Origin: a virus
Lineage: Duplodnaviria; Caudoviricetes
Virus record (IMG/VR): IMGVR_UViG_3300011008_000016
Location: 96,001-160,000 of that record
DNA: 64,000 nucleotides
Reading direction: 5' to 3' (one strand)
Shown here piece by piece: positions 7,304 through 60,974 of the stretch. A program made the position numbers and the translations under genes. The notes below the pieces were generated by a model. That model was not told where the DNA came from, searched no databases, and was given only the letters and a program-made list of their open reading frames with translations. The stretch's first letter is position 1. Each line of letters starts with the position of its first letter.

Positions 7304-8533
7304 TTATTCATCCTCTGTAAGATTTGCATATTCTGCCGATATAAGAACGTACTCGAATAGGAATACTGCAACCATACTGAATTTGTCAATTAATGGATTG
7401 ATGGCTGGTACAAGTGATTGTATTTTTTTGACAATCGCACCACCCTCAAACATGTCAACATGCATTCCAATAAGTTCAAAATCGTGTATAAGTTTATGGA
7501 GTTTCGGCATATCTGTATCACCAACTATAAAGTTTTCTGAATCTGCAAATCCCTGCATCACATGATGAACCAAATTCTCACGAATAGATTCAATAAATGG
7601 ATATATTTCCATGTATCGAGTAATCAACTTATATGCAGCTTCTTCTCCATATGTCACATACGGTAGATAATTATACACGACATTTGAAAATTGAGATGTA
7701 TAAAGTTCATTCATGAATTTATTATCATGGAATTCATATTCCTTCTCAAACTTGAGCGTTGGCAACATAATATATCGCCCATTAGTCATAGCGTCTAAAT
7801 CTTGATATTCTTTAATATCATCAACTAAATATTCACTGTAGCCGTTATGCCAGAATTGTGTCCATGAAATTCCGGAGTAGATAATCTTCTTGAAATAAGT
7901 ATCTATAACGGTAATTTCACATCCTCGGGCAGAAGTAAATAATCTATGGAGAGTTGTCCACATTTCATCGAAATCAAGATGCTTGCTGATAAACGTTTCA
8001 GCTATATGCTTTTCGAAATCTTTATTCCCAGCAGACATAAAGGAGTAATAGGTTTCTGCATCATCCCGTGTTTTGTAAATCCCAAGGACATTGTCAATTT
8101 CAAATGAACCTGGCTCAGAATCATAAACCATATAAGCTTTGATGAATCTATTCCTGATAGGAATCTTTCTTATTCCAGAACCTTGACACTTCTTACAAGA
8201 CGAAATGCCGTCAGCATCTACAACAACTCCAGAACCTTCACAATCTGGACAAACTTCATGTTCAAAATTCATATTATAAATCTCGAATGCTTTTCCATCA
8301 TATATTTTTGAAAATCGAGAATTCATTTCCTTGATAACTTCGTCAGGGTAAGTTTCATGATCCCCTTTTGTATTCATTGTAACTGCATAGAATATTCGAT
8401 CCTTTAAATCTTCTCGGCTCGTAATATCATAGTTACACGTAGGTGGTTCCAGTCTACATCCCCGAGAATGTTTACATATCTCACACATTGGATAGTTACT
8501 ATCTATCCTTGCTTTCATTTTAGTTCGTTTCAT
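7304..8533 (-). CDS. Hypothetical protein with DnaJ-type zinc-finger motifs
   Basis: CPDCEGSG...CKKCQGSG (CxxCxGxG twice) plus an N-terminal Cys cluster; start set to the ATG after SD AAAGGAG. Confidence 0.7.
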   Translation of the reverse strand: MKRTKMKARIDSNYPMCEICKHSRGCRLEPPTCNYDITSREDLKDRIFYAVTMNTKGDHETYPDEVIKEMNSRFSKIYDGKAFEIYNMNFEHEVCPDCEGSGVVVDADGISSCKKCQGSGIRKIPIRNRFIKAYMVYDSEPGSFEIDNVLGIYKTRDDAETYYSFMSAGNKDFEKHIAETFISKHLDFDEMWTTLHRLFTSARGCEITVIDTYFKKIIYSGISWTQFWHNGYSEYLVDDIKEYQDLDAMTNGRYIMLPTLKFEKEYEFHDNKFMNELYTSQFSNVVYNYLPYVTYGEEAAYKLITRYMEIYPFIESIRENLVHHVMQGFADSENFIVGDTDMPKLHKLIHDFELIGMHVDMFEGGAIVKKIQSLVPAINPLIDKFSMVAVFLFEYVLISAEYANLTEDE

Positions 8534-32969: not shown

Positions 32970-33121
32970 TTCTCTACCTCCTTATTGTGAGAGAATGTGT
33001 TTTATTATACCGTGTGGAGCATAGTCTTTTTGCATCCATCGGTTGTATCTATAGTCTTAATATAGTAATAATTTTGATTCTAAGTGGTTAGGAATTTGAT
33101 TATTCCTAACCACTCTACTGA

Positions 33122-40275: not shown

Positions 40276-40387
40276 CTTGTACCTCCTAACTGTAAGATAA
40301 CATTGTGTGATTTATAAGTAAGACAAGGTGACATGAAAATCACCTTGTCTTCTTACCATTGTAATATATTCTTCAACCCAGGGTTAC

Positions 40388-41671
40388 TTATACAGATGCA
40401 GCACCCTTCTTTTCCATGAACTTCTTCAAAAGCTCCTCTTTCGTAGAACCACCATTGTCGGAAGCCTTTACCAGACTGGACTCATCCGCAAATGACTGTT
40501 TCGCCTTAACATCACGAAGCCTGGATGCGGTATCCAATTTACTCAGCTTTGACTTTGCCGCTTTCCGACCAAGAATCGCCTCTTCCATTTTCTGGCTCTG
40601 TGCAATGATTCTATCAATAACCATTGCGGGTTCAGTTAATCCAGAAAGAATCAATGCAACGATTCCGTTATCATCATCGGAAGGGTTCGACATATCTTTG
40701 ATATGAGAACCAAAGATTTCCTGAACGTCACTCTTTACGTTAATCTTAACATCATTGAACTCATCGCCGAGACTGTACATCAATGCAGAGGCTGTAATCT
40801 CTTTATCAGAAACCAGTTCCGCGTGACCAGAGTTCTCGTCGATGTCTTCTTTCACGGTCTTGATGAGAGAGTTATCAATGATATCCGCAATCTCCAAGTC
40901 TTCCATAGTGTGAACGAAAATCCTGCCGGGTACAGACAGCACGGTCAACATATCCCGCTGGTCCATTCCGCCGGTTCTGGTAGGATAGATGAAATCACCC
41001 TGAATCGCCCTGAGGTCTTCGACAAATGCCTGATTAATCATAGCGGCTGCACGGTTCGGAGTAACCTTTCCTGAAGGAGTCGTTTTTCCAACATAACGAT
41101 TATTATCATAAATCATATATGTCGGATTCAACTCACCAATTTCCTTGAGCCATGCTTTTGTCCCTTCAAACGCTGCCGCGCCCTCATCGTTGAACGGAAG
41201 TACTCCTGCAACGATAGTAACCTTGCTGGGATACATTGTCTGAAGCAATTCAAGCAGTTCCGTAGAAGATCCAGAGCCATAACCACCACCGGTGGATGTT
41301 GTAAGAACAATCACATCGTTACCCTCGATGATGTTCTGGAAATTCTTGTTCAGGGTGAGTCCAGTGTTACTAAGGAAGAATTCCTTTGCCTTAGCCCTGT
41401 CCTTACCTGTACCCTTTCCGTCACCAACTGGGAATTTCACAACCTTCGGGCACGTAATCTGATCCAGATCCCTCTGGCTACCATTGATTGCAATCGCATC
41501 AATTCCCAATGCCTCAGCCGCAGCAGAAGCCATCATACATCCACAGTTGCCGGTACCAATGACGGCAATCGAAAGAAGTTTCTCCTCATCTGCAATCGTA
41601 GGAATCGCTGTAGAAACGCCGTCCACAGATTCCTCATCACCTGTTGTAATGTTCGTTGTTACTTCACTCAT
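40388..41671 (-). CDS. Tubulin/FtsZ-family GTPase (PhuZ/TubZ-like)
   Basis: IGTGNCG (T1), GKGTGKDR (T3), GGGYGSG (T4), DNN (T6), MDQRD (T7). Confidence 0.9.
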   Translation of the reverse strand: MSEVTTNITTGDEESVDGVSTAIPTIADEEKLLSIAVIGTGNCGCMMASAAAEALGIDAIAINGSQRDLDQITCPKVVKFPVGDGKGTGKDRAKAKEFFLSNTGLTLNKNFQNIIEGNDVIVLTTSTGGGYGSGSSTELLELLQTMYPSKVTIVAGVLPFNDEGAAAFEGTKAWLKEIGELNPTYMIYDNNRYVGKTTPSGKVTPNRAAAMINQAFVEDLRAIQGDFIYPTRTGGMDQRDMLTVLSVPGRIFVHTMEDLEIADIIDNSLIKTVKEDIDENSGHAELVSDKEITASALMYSLGDEFNDVKINVKSDVQEIFGSHIKDMSNPSDDDNGIVALILSGLTEPAMVIDRIIAQSQKMEEAILGRKAAKSKLSKLDTASRLRDVKAKQSFADESSLVKASDNGGSTKEELLKKFMEKKGAASV

Positions 41672-41678
41672 GTTCTTT

Positions 41679-41985
41679 ACCTCCTTTTGGTAATCTGTTG
41701 TATGTTTTTCTGACAGTATTGTCAGAAATACTCATAACTGGATTTGCACCAGTTCACATAAGTGTTTACCTTATTGTGAATAATCTACCACTATTATGAG
41801 TTAATACCGTATATTCTACAAACAGAATTGCTGGGAGCATAGAAATCACTCCCAGCAAGCCATTTGTTATACGGGTAATGAAGCCCGTGTATGATGACCC
41901 AACTGTAGCCCGTATATTTATAATAAACATACATACAGAAAGGAGTTTCACACAATGTTTGTCATCACGGTTTCTTCATCAAGAG
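41679..41985. ncRNA. Multibranched structured element in the tubulin leader
   Basis: At least 5 local hairpins enclosed by long-range pairing of 41681-41706 with 41925-41945, which includes the tubulin SD. Confidence 0.5.
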
Positions 41986-41987
41986 AA

Positions 41988-41995
41988 TAATATAG
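41988..41995 (-). promoter_or_regulatory. Early-type promoter CTATATTA for tubulin
   Basis: Motif lies just after terminator 42009-42047. Confidence 0.6.
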
Positions 41996-42066
41996 TAACA
42001 AAAAAGATTATGAGAGTGGGGACATCCGTGTCTCACACCACTCTCAATGTTATGGACAAGGTAGGA

Positions 42067-42252
42067 TTACTCTTCTGAACGATCATACCCTACCATTGTC
42101 GGCCCCTGGTTTGCTTCCGGGATAGATTCAATACCGGCAACTTCCATCGTTGCAGCCAGTCCCGGGAGAACTCCGCTGTTTGCCAGATTCTGCAACACTT
42201 CCTGATTCTTGTTATTATTTCCGTACTGATTGATACTTAACGTGGCACTCAT
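42067..42252 (-). CDS. Small hypothetical protein
   Basis: 61 aa, SD AAGGAGG. Confidence 0.6.
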   Translation of the reverse strand: MSATLSINQYGNNNKNQEVLQNLANSGVLPGLAATMEVAGIESIPEANQGPTMVGYDRSEE

Positions 42253-42267
42253 TTCATACTACCTCCT

Positions 42268-42846
42268 TTAATTTTCAGATTTATCTGACTGTTCATCTTC
42301 TGACATTTTCTTATTAAACTCATCAATCAGAAGTTTACTCGCTTCTTTCATAAGTTCGCTTGCTTCTGTTGAACTTGACATAGCAAACGGAATTTCTCCA
42401 GCCTTTGGACCACGAGGAATAACAACTGCCCCATCCTGCTTTGACTGAACATTCTTTTCTTTATTCATAATCTGAAGTTTTGCCGTTTTATCATATATAA
42501 TGAAACCGTCTATTTTCACCTGGCTGATACCCTGTATCATAGATACGGCAATATTATCAATAACCCCCATATAATTTGAAGCTAATTTCACCAAACTAAT
42601 CAGACGAATGGTTCCAACATAATCCCCGTTAAAGCTTTTAGATATCTTTGTAATCTTACCAATGGTATTTTCCATAGTAGCTACAAATGGAACTCCCGGT
42701 CTGTGTAGATACTGATATACGACGGGAATATCAACTTTGTCGTGTTTTATAGCTTCATTTAAAGCTCGTACAATATGGGGATTCATATGTTTTATCTGAG
42801 TGGCTGTTCGAATTATCACAGGTGCATCTGCTGTCTTCTTTTTCAT
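42268..42846 (-). CDS. Hypothetical protein
   Basis: 192 aa, coupled to the RNAP subunit gene. Confidence 0.7.
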   Translation of the reverse strand: MKKKTADAPVIIRTATQIKHMNPHIVRALNEAIKHDKVDIPVVYQYLHRPGVPFVATMENTIGKITKISKSFNGDYVGTIRLISLVKLASNYMGVIDNIAVSMIQGISQVKIDGFIIYDKTAKLQIMNKEKNVQSKQDGAVVIPRGPKAGEIPFAMSSSTEASELMKEASKLLIDEFNKKMSEDEQSDKSEN

Positions 42847-43595
42847 CGATTCCCTTTACCTCCTTTTTTAATTGTTGATATGAGAAGATTGCTTGGTGTA
42901 ATTAAGTCTGTACTTAATCCGGCTGTCATATAATATGTATCAACTGTCTCCAAAGCTAAACGGTCTTCAATACCAGCCTGTTCTTCTATATCTTCTAATG
43001 AGCAGGACCCCGTTTTTGCAATTTGAGCATATGCATAATTCTTTCTTTGTAACCCATCTGCACGGAATCCATTAATTTCTCTAAGAATATTATCTGCACC
43101 AATAACCTTCAATGCGATATTCTCTTGATCAGATGAACGTCCATTCTTATCATGTCCAACGACCTGACCAGTTGTCGCTGATCGTTCATCAATATGGGTT
43201 GATGTACTATTTTTCTTGGAATTCGTCTGCTCCATACGCTTCTCAATATGATAACCCGTGATACATTTTTCCTTAGTGACCATAGGCTCTTCTTGAGACA
43301 TCGTAACATGAGGCAGAATCACATATTCTTCCAGAGGAATTTGAAGTACATCAGCCGCAGCTTCGATTTGTTCGATTGTAACCTCTCTCTCGAACTCCTT
43401 GATTTCTAACGTAAAGTTAATATTATTGTCATCAAACATACATTTCATGAAGTTTGAAAATTTTGTATCAGACATAGAACCGAACATCTTGCGATACCTA
43501 TTGGAATTTGTTTTGGAAGGGTCCATTTTATCCATCACAGCATATACAAGATTCTCTGCTTGTTTCCGGTTCTTTATGTTAATCTTATATTGCAT
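42843..43595 (-). CDS. Virion-type RNA polymerase beta subunit, C-terminal fragment
   Basis: ITGYHIEKRMEQ...ERSATTGQVVGHDKNGRSSDQE parallels the beta C-terminal G..Y..KL.H...R......QP......GQR.GEME region; second, distinct betaC in this window. Confidence 0.75.
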   Translation of the reverse strand: MQYKINIKNRKQAENLVYAVMDKMDPSKTNSNRYRKMFGSMSDTKFSNFMKCMFDDNNINFTLEIKEFEREVTIEQIEAAADVLQIPLEEYVILPHVTMSQEEPMVTKEKCITGYHIEKRMEQTNSKKNSTSTHIDERSATTGQVVGHDKNGRSSDQENIALKVIGADNILREINGFRADGLQRKNYAYAQIAKTGSCSLEDIEEQAGIEDRLALETVDTYYMTAGLSTDLITPSNLLISTIKKGGKGNR

Positions 43596-43926: not shown

Positions 43927-44352
43927 TTACTTAACGTAATACTCAAAAAGCATAGAAAGATTTGGTTCCATGATAGAAGTCTTGTTTGTCTCACTCTCAT
44001 TCAGAACCAAAACATTGTACGGACTTCTCTTCATTAAAGCCCCGTCAATAATGACACCCCACTTCAATTTCCCAGCATAGTTCTTGAGCTGATTTATCAC
44101 CTTATTATCCAAATCCTTTAAATCCGATTTGAATATAAAGAATGATCTCATCTTCCACTGGAAATGAATATCTGCTGGGGTATCGCACTTGAGTTGTTCC
44201 TTTGCAAACCGAGTCATGTGCTTGACCAATTTCTCATGGTCTCCCTCCGTAGTGTCAGAAAACCCGATAATAAGACCTAACTTATCGCTCGTAACGACAA
44301 GTCCTGTCTGATTTGCAGCAGTTTTCTTATGTCTTTCGATTGTCAGTTCCAT
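43927..44352 (-). CDS. Hypothetical early protein
   Basis: 141 aa, early motif at 44391-44398. Confidence 0.7.
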   Translation of the reverse strand: MELTIERHKKTAANQTGLVVTSDKLGLIIGFSDTTEGDHEKLVKHMTRFAKEQLKCDTPADIHFQWKMRSFFIFKSDLKDLDNKVINQLKNYAGKLKWGVIIDGALMKRSPYNVLVLNESETNKTSIMEPNLSMLFEYYVK

Positions 44353-44468
44353 TGCAAAAGTCTCCTTTCTCTGTATAGTATGTACAGAAATAATATAGGT
44401 TTAAATTAAACCTTAAAAACATAAATCGACATAGATGATATAAAACCACCTATGTCGATAGTGTTCCA

Positions 44469-45977: not shown

Positions 45978-46217
45978 TTAATCTCTATTTCCTAAATCAT
46001 TATCTATGACGACTTTAATGCCGTCAGGATACAATTTCTGAATGTCATTCGCTAAGATGTTTGAATGCTTTGTGAGCAATTTTGCCCAACTACCATAAGC
46101 CTGATTTACCACGGAGGCACGTAGATGTGCCTCCGACCTCTTCCCTCGCGCATTGTTGATTCTAATCTGTTGTTCAACATTGCGACGTGTTGAATCTTTC
46201 ATTTTATCATTTACCAT
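45978..46217 (-). CDS. Hypothetical protein
   Basis: 79 aa ORF after gyrA. Confidence 0.5.
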   Translation of the reverse strand: MVNDKMKDSTRRNVEQQIRINNARGKRSEAHLRASVVNQAYGSWAKLLTKHSNILANDIQKLYPDGIKVVIDNDLGNRD

Positions 46218-48666
46218 CCTTCACGCGAATTCTAATGATAGAATCACCACGTCGGACTGGTGCAACTTTAGCACATTTAGCATGTCTTGAAAGCACCTTA
46301 ATACTTGACACTTCCACATCCGTCTTATCACCAGACTGCATTTGGAAAGTCAATGTAGATTGGTAAAGTTTATCTGTCATAGGAATGACTTTGAAAACTT
46401 CATCGCCATCATTTAAACGAGTCAGTTCTAACATAGCTTGCCGTTTCTTAGTTGCATTGAATGCAGAATCGAGTTCTACAATCTTTGCAAATCCCTTCTT
46501 CGTAATAATACATACTTCATGTATACCACGATTCACACAAGCGTTCTGAACCTCATCTCCGTCCGCAAGTGCCATTACACGCTGTCCTTTGGTGTTTCTA
46601 CCTGTGGATGGAGTCATTGATAATCTTAAAATGATACCGAATCCGGCTTTTGTATAGATAAGCCGTTCGTTATCACTGTCACTAAGAACTCCCATAAAGC
46701 AAACTTCATCCCCCTCATTTAAGGAGATTGCTCCGATACGAGTACGTGTTATCACGAAATCAGATAACGGAGTTGCTTTGATTAGTCCTCTCTTAGTAAA
46801 GCAATAAAGCCGATATTTTTGCGGATTATCTTTGATACTCTGAATTGAAGTTTTAATCGCTGTAATCGCTGTACCGGTCATACCTAAAAGTTCCTGTAAT
46901 TCCATTCCCTTAGCCGATGGATCAGATGCAGGGATTTTATCAATTGGTACATAACACCACTCTCCGAGGTTACTCCCAATATGAATATAATCTACCGAAG
47001 TAATGTCATGGAAATAAGCAATTACGTCATCATCAGGTTCTAAGAATCCGATACCAACTCCATTCGGAGGAAGACGTTTAATATACTTCTTTGTAACAGC
47101 TACCCGATAGTGGAATACAGGAGTCTCTGTATCTTCCGGTTTAATAATGCGACAGCATCTCGGTTTTCCGAATAATTTCTTGCCTTCTTCCAATTCATCC
47201 CAGATTACTTTCTTAATCCGTTTCGTGGATGAAAGGATATTTTCCTTTTCCTTAATACGATCATCGATTTCCGCATAGGCTTTCTGATATTCAGCAATAC
47301 TGCCTTTCTTCTGAGATTTCATTCTCATATTTGCGATGAGGTTTGCCTGATAGGATGAAAATCCAAACTTAGATGTAAGATTATCAATGATTTCGTCATC
47401 CGTTTCAGATGTCTTAATCACGTTGAAGACTTCATCGATTAACTCTTGGTTACCCAGTCTAACCAAAGCTTCTAACCGATGCTTCTCTTCTCTGATTTTC
47501 AGTAACTCTTTTGCGATTGTCCGGTGTTTGATATCCACCCGCCAATCGATCCAGGTTATTATAGCATCTTTCAGTGGTACTGCTCCACTGTCGGACATCA
47601 TCCGAGTACGGTCTGCATAATTCAATAATATCTGAGCATATGATTTTAACCCGATATTTTTATCGTTATACAACTGATCAATAACATACGTTGGATCGAC
47701 TCCTTTCTTTAGGAGAATCCAAAATTCTGTTGTTTCCAGATTACTCTTATCGGATATGTCCTTGATTCCCAGTGGATTGGTCTTTTCACGCGCTCCTATA
47801 GCACGGATAATCCCATCCATAGTAGTTTTCTCCGGGAACCCATTACATAAAATGTAATTGCCTTCTTGATGATAGACTAATTTCGCTCTTATTCGTACTG
47901 TACCGGAACCAGTCGCACATACATCTCGTATAATTCCATCATCAATAATGTCATAACCCCTTGGACTATCTGGAAACAGATAAACATTCTCCATGTCCGG
48001 ATTTTCCAAAAGTGCCTGAGTAAGTTCAAACGCTTCAATCAAGTTAAACGGAACTTTGACAAACGCATTTCCCCAAGCAATTCCCGTTGTAGGATTCAAT
48101 AAGAAGTTTGGATACCTTGCCGGTAATACAACCGGTTCCACATCACTTCTCAAGTAGTTTTGAGTCATATCAATGACCGATGCATCGAATTCCTCAAAGA
48201 AACATTTCCAAGCATATTGACTTAACCTTGCATCCAGATAACGAGGAGCGGCTGCATCATCGCCTGCAACAGAACCTTCATTTCCATCCATATCTATATA
48301 GAGTGCGGTGTTCTCCCAAGTCTTTGTTACGTTCTCAAAAGCCGTAGCAATACTCTGGTCACCGTGAGGGTGATATTTGGTCGTTGCCGGTAAAAATTCC
48401 AAAGCCTTCTGATACCTTTTATCCGGGTACAATTTCTTATCATGATACATAAACCAAAGAGTACGACGGACTACGTTAATAAGTCCATCATATATCGTTG
48501 GTAACCCTCTCGCTACGGAGACATTTGCTCCATAGCGAGTAATACGTTCAATCGTGTATTCACCAGCATCAATGTCCTCGATGTTCTGGTCATACATCTC
48601 TTGAGTTTCAACAACTTTAGCGGTATTCTTCTTTTTAGAAGATTTCTTTTTGACTGCCAAAGTCAA
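46207..48666 (-). CDS. gyrA: Type IIA topoisomerase subunit A (GyrA/ParC-like)
   Basis: RGLPTIYDGL, YHPHGD, AAPRY (catalytic Tyr), PVVLPARYPN, beta-pinwheel repeats; no canonical GyrA box. Confidence 0.9.
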   Translation of the reverse strand: MTLAVKKKSSKKKNTAKVVETQEMYDQNIEDIDAGEYTIERITRYGANVSVARGLPTIYDGLINVVRRTLWFMYHDKKLYPDKRYQKALEFLPATTKYHPHGDQSIATAFENVTKTWENTALYIDMDGNEGSVAGDDAAAPRYLDARLSQYAWKCFFEEFDASVIDMTQNYLRSDVEPVVLPARYPNFLLNPTTGIAWGNAFVKVPFNLIEAFELTQALLENPDMENVYLFPDSPRGYDIIDDGIIRDVCATGSGTVRIRAKLVYHQEGNYILCNGFPEKTTMDGIIRAIGAREKTNPLGIKDISDKSNLETTEFWILLKKGVDPTYVIDQLYNDKNIGLKSYAQILLNYADRTRMMSDSGAVPLKDAIITWIDWRVDIKHRTIAKELLKIREEKHRLEALVRLGNQELIDEVFNVIKTSETDDEIIDNLTSKFGFSSYQANLIANMRMKSQKKGSIAEYQKAYAEIDDRIKEKENILSSTKRIKKVIWDELEEGKKLFGKPRCCRIIKPEDTETPVFHYRVAVTKKYIKRLPPNGVGIGFLEPDDDVIAYFHDITSVDYIHIGSNLGEWCYVPIDKIPASDPSAKGMELQELLGMTGTAITAIKTSIQSIKDNPQKYRLYCFTKRGLIKATPLSDFVITRTRIGAISLNEGDEVCFMGVLSDSDNERLIYTKAGFGIILRLSMTPSTGRNTKGQRVMALADGDEVQNACVNRGIHEVCIITKKGFAKIVELDSAFNATKKRQAMLELTRLNDGDEVFKVIPMTDKLYQSTLTFQMQSGDKTDVEVSSIKVLSRHAKCAKVAPVRRGDSIIRIRVKDGK

Positions 48667-60853: not shown

Positions 60854-60974
60854 AACTTTTATCCCCTTTCGTGTATAAACTGGAGCATAGTAAATTTGTT
60901 ATAGTAGCTCCATTAGTTTCCTTATATACAGAATTAATATAGTACTAAAAAGCTTGCGAAACGGATTTTTCACA

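Follow-up and report, generated by a model that had tools for sequence, protein, structure and literature searches.

Why a bacteriophage should keep almost 400 nucleotides (nt) free of genes in front of a single tubulin gene is the question raised by a locus in the stretch analysed here, positions 96,001 to 160,000 of the IMG/VR virus record IMGVR_UViG_3300011008_000016 (64,000 nt in all, hereafter the window; positions are those of the window unless another sequence is named). The gene encodes a PhuZ-like protein of the tubulin/FtsZ family, and the gap of 395 nt between its start and the preceding 61-codon gene holds no credible open reading frame. Phage tubulins of this kind position the replicating genome, and the dynamics of their filaments depend on concentration. 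No account of how phage tubulin dosage is set was found, in a search that was not aimed at PhuZ leader RNAs. An original prediction, made from the letters of the window, placed in this gap a structured leader of about 300 nt whose outer stem sequesters the Shine-Dalgarno sequence (SD) of the tubulin gene, and took it for an undescribed riboregulator, either a cis switch or an antisense RNA. Much of this survives: a conserved, structured leader lies on the strand of the tubulin mRNA, and pairing with the SD is found in 13/13 leaders, while the antisense alternative and a suggested link to the gene at 43927-44352 were not upheld. We propose a cis-acting leader that would mask the tubulin ribosome site and would carry a tRNA-like processing module, a reading to which we assign about an even chance.

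The comparison covers 13 leaders, namely the window and 12 distinct relatives (L001-L003, L006 and L148-L155; L027 duplicates L149), which were found by a search with the back-translated tubulin, a protein search and look-ups of the encoding contigs. The protein search gave 82 homologues of the tubulin at E <= 1e-40, 11 of which were looked up. In the 12 relatives the tubulins are 54-73% identical, gene order is kept and the spacer measures 360-410 nt. The order and spacing of all modules are common to the 13 leaders, and the spacers align in blocks. The shared architecture consists of an AR9-type promoter, a pseudoknotted 5' domain, a variable hairpin, a tRNA-like cloverleaf, a further hairpin and a long-range helix between an anti-SD arm and the SD (Table 1).

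The long-range helix, the central element of the original prediction, was confirmed in the minus-strand RNA. CUCCUUU-CUGUAUGUAUGUUU (41945-41925) pairs with AAACAUACAACAG (41707-41695) and with AAAGGAG (41687-41681), forming 13 base pairs (bp) with one bulged A and a further 7 bp beyond an internal loop of 7 nt. The duplex of the two arms (RNAduplex) reaches -21.9 kcal/mol, compared with -12.2 +/- 3.0 for 300 dinucleotide-shuffled 5' arms, of which 1/300 was as good. The helix is predicted in 13/13 leaders at -15.6 to -22.6 kcal/mol, with an arm that includes CUGUAUG facing an ACAUACA box and GGAG. Relative to shuffled arms, z lies between -3.1 and -6.8 in 12 leaders, L154 being the outlier (z -1.9, 14/300 shuffles as good). 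The spacer from ACAUACA to the SD measures between ~5 and 22 nt, with corresponding changes in the 5' arm: the leaders with longer spacers (L006, L153 and L155) carry matching extra segments in their 5' arms, L151 and L152 form a nearly continuous helix of 19 pairs, and L006 has CUGUAUGAU/AUCAUACAG in place of the GUU/AAC of the others. Cognate arms average -19.5 kcal/mol versus -15.7 for permuted partners (0/20,000 permutations). Once the strands of helix S1 (described below) are masked, the minimum free energy (MFE) fold gives the pairing of boxes c and c' in 12/13 leaders, sets at least one SD base on the anti-SD in 11/13 and at least three of the five GGAGG bases in 10/13. In fixed alignment columns, 80.7% of the helix cells are paired, as opposed to 37-60% for slid partners. 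Conservation and consistent pairing energies speak for the long-range helix, and its variable part co-varies; it falls short of classical covariation proof. Since an anti-SD complementary to the SD is kept across 13/13 homologues, the leader would qualify as an SD-sequestering one.

The anti-SD arm is located in a large loop closed by S1, in which the first ~20 nt of the transcript pair with 41898-41876. The same interrupted helix recurs in 13/13 leaders, L006 and L154 building it from wholly different sequences as uninterrupted helices of ~18 bp. Cognate S1 strands beat non-cognate ones (p = 1.5e-4), and the a:a' pairs covary. The second helix, S2 (GUAYGG/CCRUAC), is paired in 98.9% of the family cells and shows C-G to U-A exchanges in four sequences. 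Taken together in alignment A4, a:a' and d:d' are 92.3% paired, whereas slid partners give 20-48%; in five of the pairs both bases have changed, and 0/500 shuffles attain the covariation score. Because the 3' strand of S1 lies within the loop of S2, the two helices make up a pseudoknot.

Box d' of S2 has more than one possible partner. The original prediction had described the alternative partners of 41872-41875 as switch-like; they are real, and a third was added. The box can pair with 41909-41916, which is the family-supported choice, with 41884-41887 in a local hairpin, or with 41807-41815, box d'', in a helix that extends hairpin P4 and is the one taken by the MFE fold of the window. The d':d'' helix is available in 9/13 leaders, and the partners 41909-41916 and 41807-41815, which exclude each other, both recur in the relatives with matching substitutions. 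A switch via the partners of d' is possible on this pattern. It leads to an alternative to processing-coupled masking in which the leader is a sensor: the 5' pseudoknot, with its invariant GGCGACA and its CACCC junction, would bind a small molecule or a protein, and binding would toggle d' between d (S2) and d'' (extended P4) and set the access of the anti-SD, the tRNA-like module being structural or secondary. The near-invariant unpaired bases at the S1/S2 junction would suit such a sensor, as would the two mutually exclusive helices of d', with the exchanges seen in d:d' and with UAUGG in L154 matching its CCAUA, and the SD-masking helix would be a classic expression platform. However, L153 and L155 have no d'', most of the putative sensor comes 3' of the anti-SD arm, an arrangement unlike that of known translational riboswitches, and the gene context suggests no ligand. 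Nor does any Rfam riboswitch class match at E up to 10, where the region gives chance-level matches (E 2-8; for example MicC, 19 bits vs a cut-off of 90); at the gathering score no Rfam family is found in the window, and no RNA database (Rfam) describes the leader. We consider the sensor an unlikely account.

Two hairpins frame the tRNA-like module. At the position of P4, 13/13 leaders have a hairpin of 10-16 bp, with unrelated sequences; it is terminator-like in the window, and its U-tract is absent in L003, L149, L150 and L151. P6 corresponds in 13/13 leaders to a hairpin of differing sequence that begins 0-2 nt past the discriminator base.

The module between them parses as a non-decoding cloverleaf. 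Two hairpins of the original prediction, 41736-41754 and 41753-41780, are its T-arm and its long anticodon-like arm; the others that it listed (41707-41728, 41828-41858 and 41868-41892) are present as well. The acceptor stem forms 7/7 pairs in 13/13 leaders from nine different sequences, with at least two pair types per position. Among the 156 acceptor and T-stem cells of the 13 leaders, 150 are Watson-Crick, five G-U, none A-C and one other. A T-stem of 5 bp with a 7-nt loop UUCRANY and a GG in the D-region are found in 13/13, and a discriminator A in 12/13; CCA is not encoded. The T-arm is 98.5% paired, with three covarying pairs. The module measures 68-73 nt, except in L006 (60 nt), and a covariance model of it, R1, has one match in the 244-kb genome, the copy in the tubulin leader. 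RNAalifold on plain MAFFT alignments recovered the T-arm alone, and the alignment A7, realigned with the covariance model, has register errors (acceptor 77% and anticodon-like arm 50% paired), so the acceptor and anticodon-like stems were scored by T-loop-anchored parsing.

A genuine tRNA was considered and rejected, given the deviant anticodon-like arm and the verdict of ARAGORN on all copies. In the anticodon-like arm, a stem of 5-9 bp closes a loop of 9-16 nt whose sole conserved part is a UAA triplet, and the 5-bp stem with 7-nt loop of tRNAs occurs in none of the 13. ARAGORN reports no tRNA in the window, the genome or any relative locus, and thus no true tRNA at the same place in the relatives. 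With the E threshold raised to 10, the Rfam tRNA model (RF00005) still has no match in the window, and only the L153 copy reaches its cut-off (29.2 bits vs 29). What is kept instead is a 12-bp acceptor/T minihelix, a D-loop/T-loop elbow, the discriminator A and the lack of an encoded CCA. Because these are the features read by the enzymes of tRNA ends (RNase P, RNase Z and the CCA-adding enzyme), the module is probably a signal for cleavage by RNase P/Z. As a separate observation, the whole 244-kb genome has 0 tRNA genes by ARAGORN, and a CCA-adding enzyme (PF01743) was looked for in it and not found; in a jumbo phage with a tRNA-shaped RNA this is unusual.

The promoter places these elements on one transcript. 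In the Bacillus phage AR9, the experimentally mapped early consensus is AAATATATATTAT-N6-G(+1), which is read by the virion RNA polymerase (PMC5312081). The motif of the tubulin leader is invariant in 13/13 leaders, and in each a G stands at the AR9 spacing from it, the G of a conserved GAUGA box. An AT-rich TATATATTAT-like motif, 6 nt and a purine start, the latter predicted, thus agree with the AR9/phiKZ type. The likeness extends to the AT-rich TATAT(A)TTAT and to the position before early-type genes (PMC5312081), and the phage described here also encodes split RNA polymerase beta pieces; the differences are that the motif here is shorter (CTATATTA) and that the start is predicted from it. 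The window has nine copies of CTATATTA, against 3.95 expected (0/100 shuffles); every one is on the minus strand, and most stand shortly before a gene. The other window copies have an A at the predicted +1, and one copy a T. With the predicted start set at G41980, the leader is 309 nt long (to the AUG at 41671) and includes the anti-SD arm. A start downstream of the anti-SD had been named beforehand as a finding that would speak against the leader; the motif puts it upstream of the arm. In the relatives, a terminator hairpin and U-run equivalent to those of the upstream gene lie at the same place.

Further AR9-like motifs, (C/A)TATATTA(W), lie on the minus strand at 60942, 52363, 44398, 36033, 33065, 28290 and 10559, and also at 40369 and 31515. 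They sit in intergenic gaps before minus-strand genes, and several precede long hairpin-bearing leaders; examples are a leader of ~90 nt at 33065 and, before the gene that follows tubulin, a hairpin leader at 40369. Within the anticodon-like arm, AACACUUAUGUG (41766-41755, minus strand) fits the AR9 late-promoter consensus AACA-N6-T-A/G. If it were used, a late transcript would begin inside the tRNA-like module, without the anti-SD arm; as it is not conserved in the relatives, it is probably a chance match (~8% expected in the stretch).

Table 1. Features of the tubulin leader and its surroundings, in window coordinates
Feature	Position	Strand	Basis or remark
Anti-SD arm: CUCCUUU (anti-SD) and CUGUAUGUAUGUUU (box c)	41925-41945	-	pairs with 41707-41680
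3' arm: AAACAUACAACAG (box c'), spacer, Shine-Dalgarno AAAGGAGG	41680-41707	-	sequence
S1 5' strand: boxes a (UGAUGAAG) and b (CCGUGAUGAC)	41961-41981	-	pairs with 41898-41876, -23.7 kcal/mol
S1 3' strand (b', a')	41876-41898	-	inside S2 loop
S2 5' strand (box d, UAUACGGG)	41909-41916	-	pairs with 41875-41868
S2 3' strand (box d', CCCGUAUA)	41868-41875	-	three possible partners in window
Box d'' (AAUAUACGG), second copy of box d	41807-41815	-	direct repeat; alternative d' partner
Hairpin P4, 10-bp GC-rich stem	41828-41858	-	perfect inverted repeat
Non-decoding tRNA-like cloverleaf, 73 nt	41729-41801	-	T-loop-anchored parsing, 13 leaders
Cloverleaf parts	acceptor 41801-41795/41736-41730; D-region with GG; anticodon-like arm 41781-41754; T-arm 41753-41737; discriminator A 41729	-	
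Hairpin P6, 9-bp stem	41707-41728	-	directly after discriminator base
AR9/phiKZ-type early (virion RNA polymerase) promoter motif CTATATTAT	41987-41995	-	consensus match
Predicted transcription start	41980	-	G, 6 nt past motif; first base of GAUGA box; AR9 rule
Intrinsic terminator of upstream 61-aa gene	41999-42046	-	hairpin 42046-42011, 9-bp perfect inverted repeat, then U-run UCUUUUUUG
Tubulin/FtsZ-family (PhuZ-like) gene, 427 aa	40388-41671	-	Pfam PF00091, E 1.5e-13
Split RNA polymerase beta piece	42843-43595	-	phrog_3233
Topoisomerase II	46207-48666	-	

Folding of the region on both strands, proposed as a check of the original prediction, gives -103.5 kcal/mol on the minus strand compared with -72.1 +/- 4.0 for dinucleotide shuffles (z -7.9, 0/100), and -88.7 kcal/mol on the plus strand (z -5.4). 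The earlier view that G-U pairs favour the plus strand is contradicted by this result and by the G-U and A-C counts in the acceptor and T stems. Sense and antisense energies of whole leaders, S1 arms and SD-helix arms do not discriminate between the strands. The minus strand was called on the tRNA-like module (G-U/A-C asymmetry and T-loop consensus), the orientation of the promoter and the logic of the SD.

Together, these features suggest the following course of events. The virion RNA polymerase would transcribe the early tubulin mRNA from the AR9-type promoter, and the leader would fold into the pseudoknot of S1 and S2, followed by P4, the tRNA-like cloverleaf and P6. The anti-SD arm in the S1 loop would pair across ~230 nt with the ACAUACA box and the SD, so that the ribosome-binding site would be double-stranded by default and translation of tubulin low or delayed. 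Host RNase P and RNase Z, directed by the tRNA-like module, would then cut the leader and separate the anti-SD domain from the coding part, leaving a tubulin mRNA that would start with P6 as its 5' stabiliser; a 5'-terminal hairpin is a typical stabiliser of mRNA 5' ends. The leader would most likely limit or time the synthesis of tubulin.

Several points weigh against this reading. When the arm is paired with each of the 375 ribosome-site-like starts of the genome, its own site at tubulin comes fifth, four others being as good or better; the fit to other sites stems from a common CAGAAAGGAG context. Fixed-column covariation of the SD helix is weak (score 0.147 vs 0.116, with 14/500 shuffles reaching it) because both arms are largely invariant, and half of the pairs never vary. 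The absence of covariation had likewise been named as a finding that would count against the leader: S1, S2 and the tRNA-like stems do covary, and the shortfall concerns the SD helix. Another cause could underlie the conservation of box c, box c' and the SD, all of which hardly vary. The long-range helix is also not the choice of plain RNAfold for the window, owing to its pseudoknot conflict with S1. With regard to processing, a hairpin directly past the discriminator might hinder RNase Z instead of resulting from its action, and the arm might stay on the SD in trans once the leader had been cut. Finally, L147, whose tubulin (76% identical) is the most similar found, has only 141 nt before the gene, without leader and promoter motif; the leader is therefore dispensable. 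L147 looks like a deletion of the element, and it keeps AUACAAGAAUACAAGAAGGAGG before the start (1059-1201).

Other forms of leader are found outside the 13. L008 (1251-1500; tubulin 44% identical) has a reduced form, in which a possible tRNA-like fold with the acceptor GUAGAAC/GUUCUAC begins 1 nt past the predicted start and is followed by a GC hairpin and the SD; the pseudoknot domain is absent, and model R1 gives no detection at E <= 1. L156 and L157 have other long leaders. In L156 (729-1200; tubulin 48% identical), a different leader of ~330 nt stands behind the same promoter type, and a CUUCCUUU segment ~270 nt upstream pairs with its own SD region (z -3.3, 0/300 shuffles), so SD masking may be older than this RNA family. 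Anti-SD pairing is not significant in L008, L157 and L147. A search of IMG/VR with the pattern GGCGACA-N18-48-CACCCRTACA gave, among the matches listed, 0/118 loci with the neighbouring motifs; the pattern is thus too unspecific.

If the proposed cuts did occur, their products might have functions of their own. In a processing-coupled riboregulator of a new class, the tRNA mimic would recruit host tRNA-maturation enzymes and the transcript would be cut in three, giving a stabilised tubulin mRNA, a free tRNA-shaped RNA and a pseudoknotted anti-SD RNA that would act in trans on several phage ribosome sites; or else the pseudoknot would be a new ligand-sensing aptamer. We hold this to be less likely again than the sensor. 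If true, tubulin and perhaps other early genes would be timed by the tRNA-processing capacity of the host.

A further possibility is an independent structured RNA for which the early tubulin transcript is no more than a carrier. In that case the long-range helix would be a processing stem, and its cleavage, for example by RNase III, would free an RNA of ~230 nt. The tRNA-like domain of that RNA would act elsewhere, for instance as a sponge or decoy that draws off host defences against tRNAs or factors that bind them, and occlusion of the SD would be incidental. The helix of 15-27 pairs does close the whole multi-domain RNA, and rRNA and phage processing stems for RNase III have similar closing helices. 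A tRNA-shaped RNA under selection in a genome without tRNA genes, as well as the possible fold and hairpin of L008, which lack the 5' domain, are also in keeping with it, though R1 misses L008. On the other hand, the helix reaches the SD in 13/13 leaders despite differences in spacer length, whereas a stem that served processing alone would have no need to; the element stands solely upstream of tubulin, once per genome; and the variable anticodon-like loop is not kept as a nuclease target would be. We rate this account as quite unlikely.

The pairing of the arm with other ribosome sites raises the question of a mainly trans-acting small RNA, either a transcript of ~150 nt terminated at P4 or a 5' fragment, which would silence several CAGAAAGGAG ribosome sites with tubulin as one of them. 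The C4 RNA of phages P1/P7 offers a precedent as a leader-encoded antisense RNA (PMC11143913), and in the window P4 has the score of an intrinsic terminator. The arm gives -20 to -27.5 kcal/mol with several other starts, and it also pairs with the leader of the gene at 43927-44352; its complementarity to 44362-44383 there, pointed out in the original prediction, is real and not specific. However, pyrimidine-rich arms suit any strong SD, the arms of the family co-vary with their own cis partners, and the U-tract after P4 fails in the four leaders named above, which leaves such an RNA improbable as the main function. An ACAUACA box shortly before the SD also occurs at other starts, in genome coordinates at 8239(+), 78030(+), 85310(+) and 57830(-), and in the window at 44383-44362(-); it may be a general leader element and not specific to tubulin.

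A product of the plus strand (an antisense RNA or the 11-codon micro-ORF at 41955-41990) or a DNA site such as a tubulin centromere or a replication origin is contradicted by the data and very improbable: the plus strand does fold better than shuffles and AAAGGAG does precede an ATG on it in the window, but promoter motifs are confined to the minus strand, which is also the only one that the T-loop consensus and the G-U pairs suit, there are no iterated direct repeats, and stems kept by compensatory changes indicate RNA and not protein-binding DNA. The micro-ORF, present in the window as first described, has an ATG-started equivalent in no relative; it is absent in 8/12, while L003, L148 and L149 have a TTG start with unrelated peptides and L150 a truncated TTG frame. 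Systems of the TubZ type have their centromeres upstream, and a TubZRC-type centromere (tubC) was accordingly considered and rejected: there is no repeat family with more than two short copies, and conservation follows RNA pairing.

The preferred reading, a masked ribosome site with a tRNA-like processing module, combines principles that are known separately. In SD-sequestering leaders such as riboswitch platforms and RNA thermometers, a pyrimidine-rich segment lies on the SD and initiation needs the helix to be opened or cut; in the lambda N-leader, a long SD-sequestering stem is cut by RNase III. The predicted tubulin-leader pairing differs in that it spans ~230 nt, encloses four folded modules and belongs to no Rfam family. 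In plant mitochondria, t-elements are non-decoding tRNA-like signals in mRNA leaders and trailers, at which RNase Z and RNase P cut the transcript (Forner et al. 2007, PMC1920247). Creation of the mature mRNA 5' end by such a cut is shown for cox1 and otherwise proposed (PMC1920247). The features in common are a non-canonical cloverleaf, a well-kept GGTTCRANYCC T-arm, a place in an mRNA leader and no decoding (PMC1920247). With its non-canonical cloverleaf, conserved T-arm and compensatory changes in an mRNA, the module fits, by these sequence features, a t-element-like class. It differs in belonging to a bacteriophage, in being one module of a larger pseudoknotted leader and in its coupling to an SD-masking helix, and cleavage is here predicted.

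The closest phage parallel considered is the C4 antisense RNA of P1/P7, which is encoded in a leader and matured by RNase P, an enzyme that also cuts some mRNAs (PMC11143913). C4 and the tubulin leader would share an antisense segment that is co-transcribed in the leader and covers a downstream ribosome site, phage control of an early or immunity type, and a tRNA-processing enzyme, shown for C4 and proposed for the tubulin leader. In keeping with a C4-type arrangement, the anti-SD arm (41945-41925) follows the predicted start (41980) on the transcript and shows complementarity to 41707-41680. C4 differs in carrying its antisense loops within a small tRNA-like RNA, whereas the anti-SD arm sits in a separate pseudoknot domain ~120 nt upstream of the module, and in its target, an antirepressor operon instead of tubulin. 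The two RNAs have no similarity in sequence, and the Rfam C4 model gives no match at the gathering score or at E up to 10. A thin check of the literature on tRNA-like RNAs, jumbo phages and RNase P, which did not cover PhuZ leader RNAs, found no such leader among the papers listed. SD masking and tRNA-like processing signals are thus known principles; the RNA family, their combination and the biological target are new.

The genomic setting is that of a jumbo phage with its own multisubunit RNA polymerases. The virus record comprises 244,309 bp, is rated complete, has 37% G+C and originates from gut metagenomes. The small gene that adjoins the leader upstream (42067-42252, minus strand) encodes 61 amino acids with an N/Q-rich N-terminus and a conserved ATMEVAG-ESIP core; its counterparts measure 50-63 amino acids in the ten relatives with listed called genes, and it has no match in Pfam or PHROG. 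A blastn search of GenBank phages gave no match. A search of sequencing runs for the phage found it in no RNA run listed and found one gut DNA run with 23% of its words.

A clade of gut jumbo phages spends ~310 nt of conserved, covarying RNA before a single tubulin gene. If the proposed leader is what it appears to be, it would give databases a new and well-defined RNA family in which a pseudoknot and a tRNA mimic are combined with a long-range mask of the SD. It would also be the counterpart, in a bacterial virus, of the t-elements of organelles, and it would provide a testable case of translation control on transcripts of the virion RNA polymerase.

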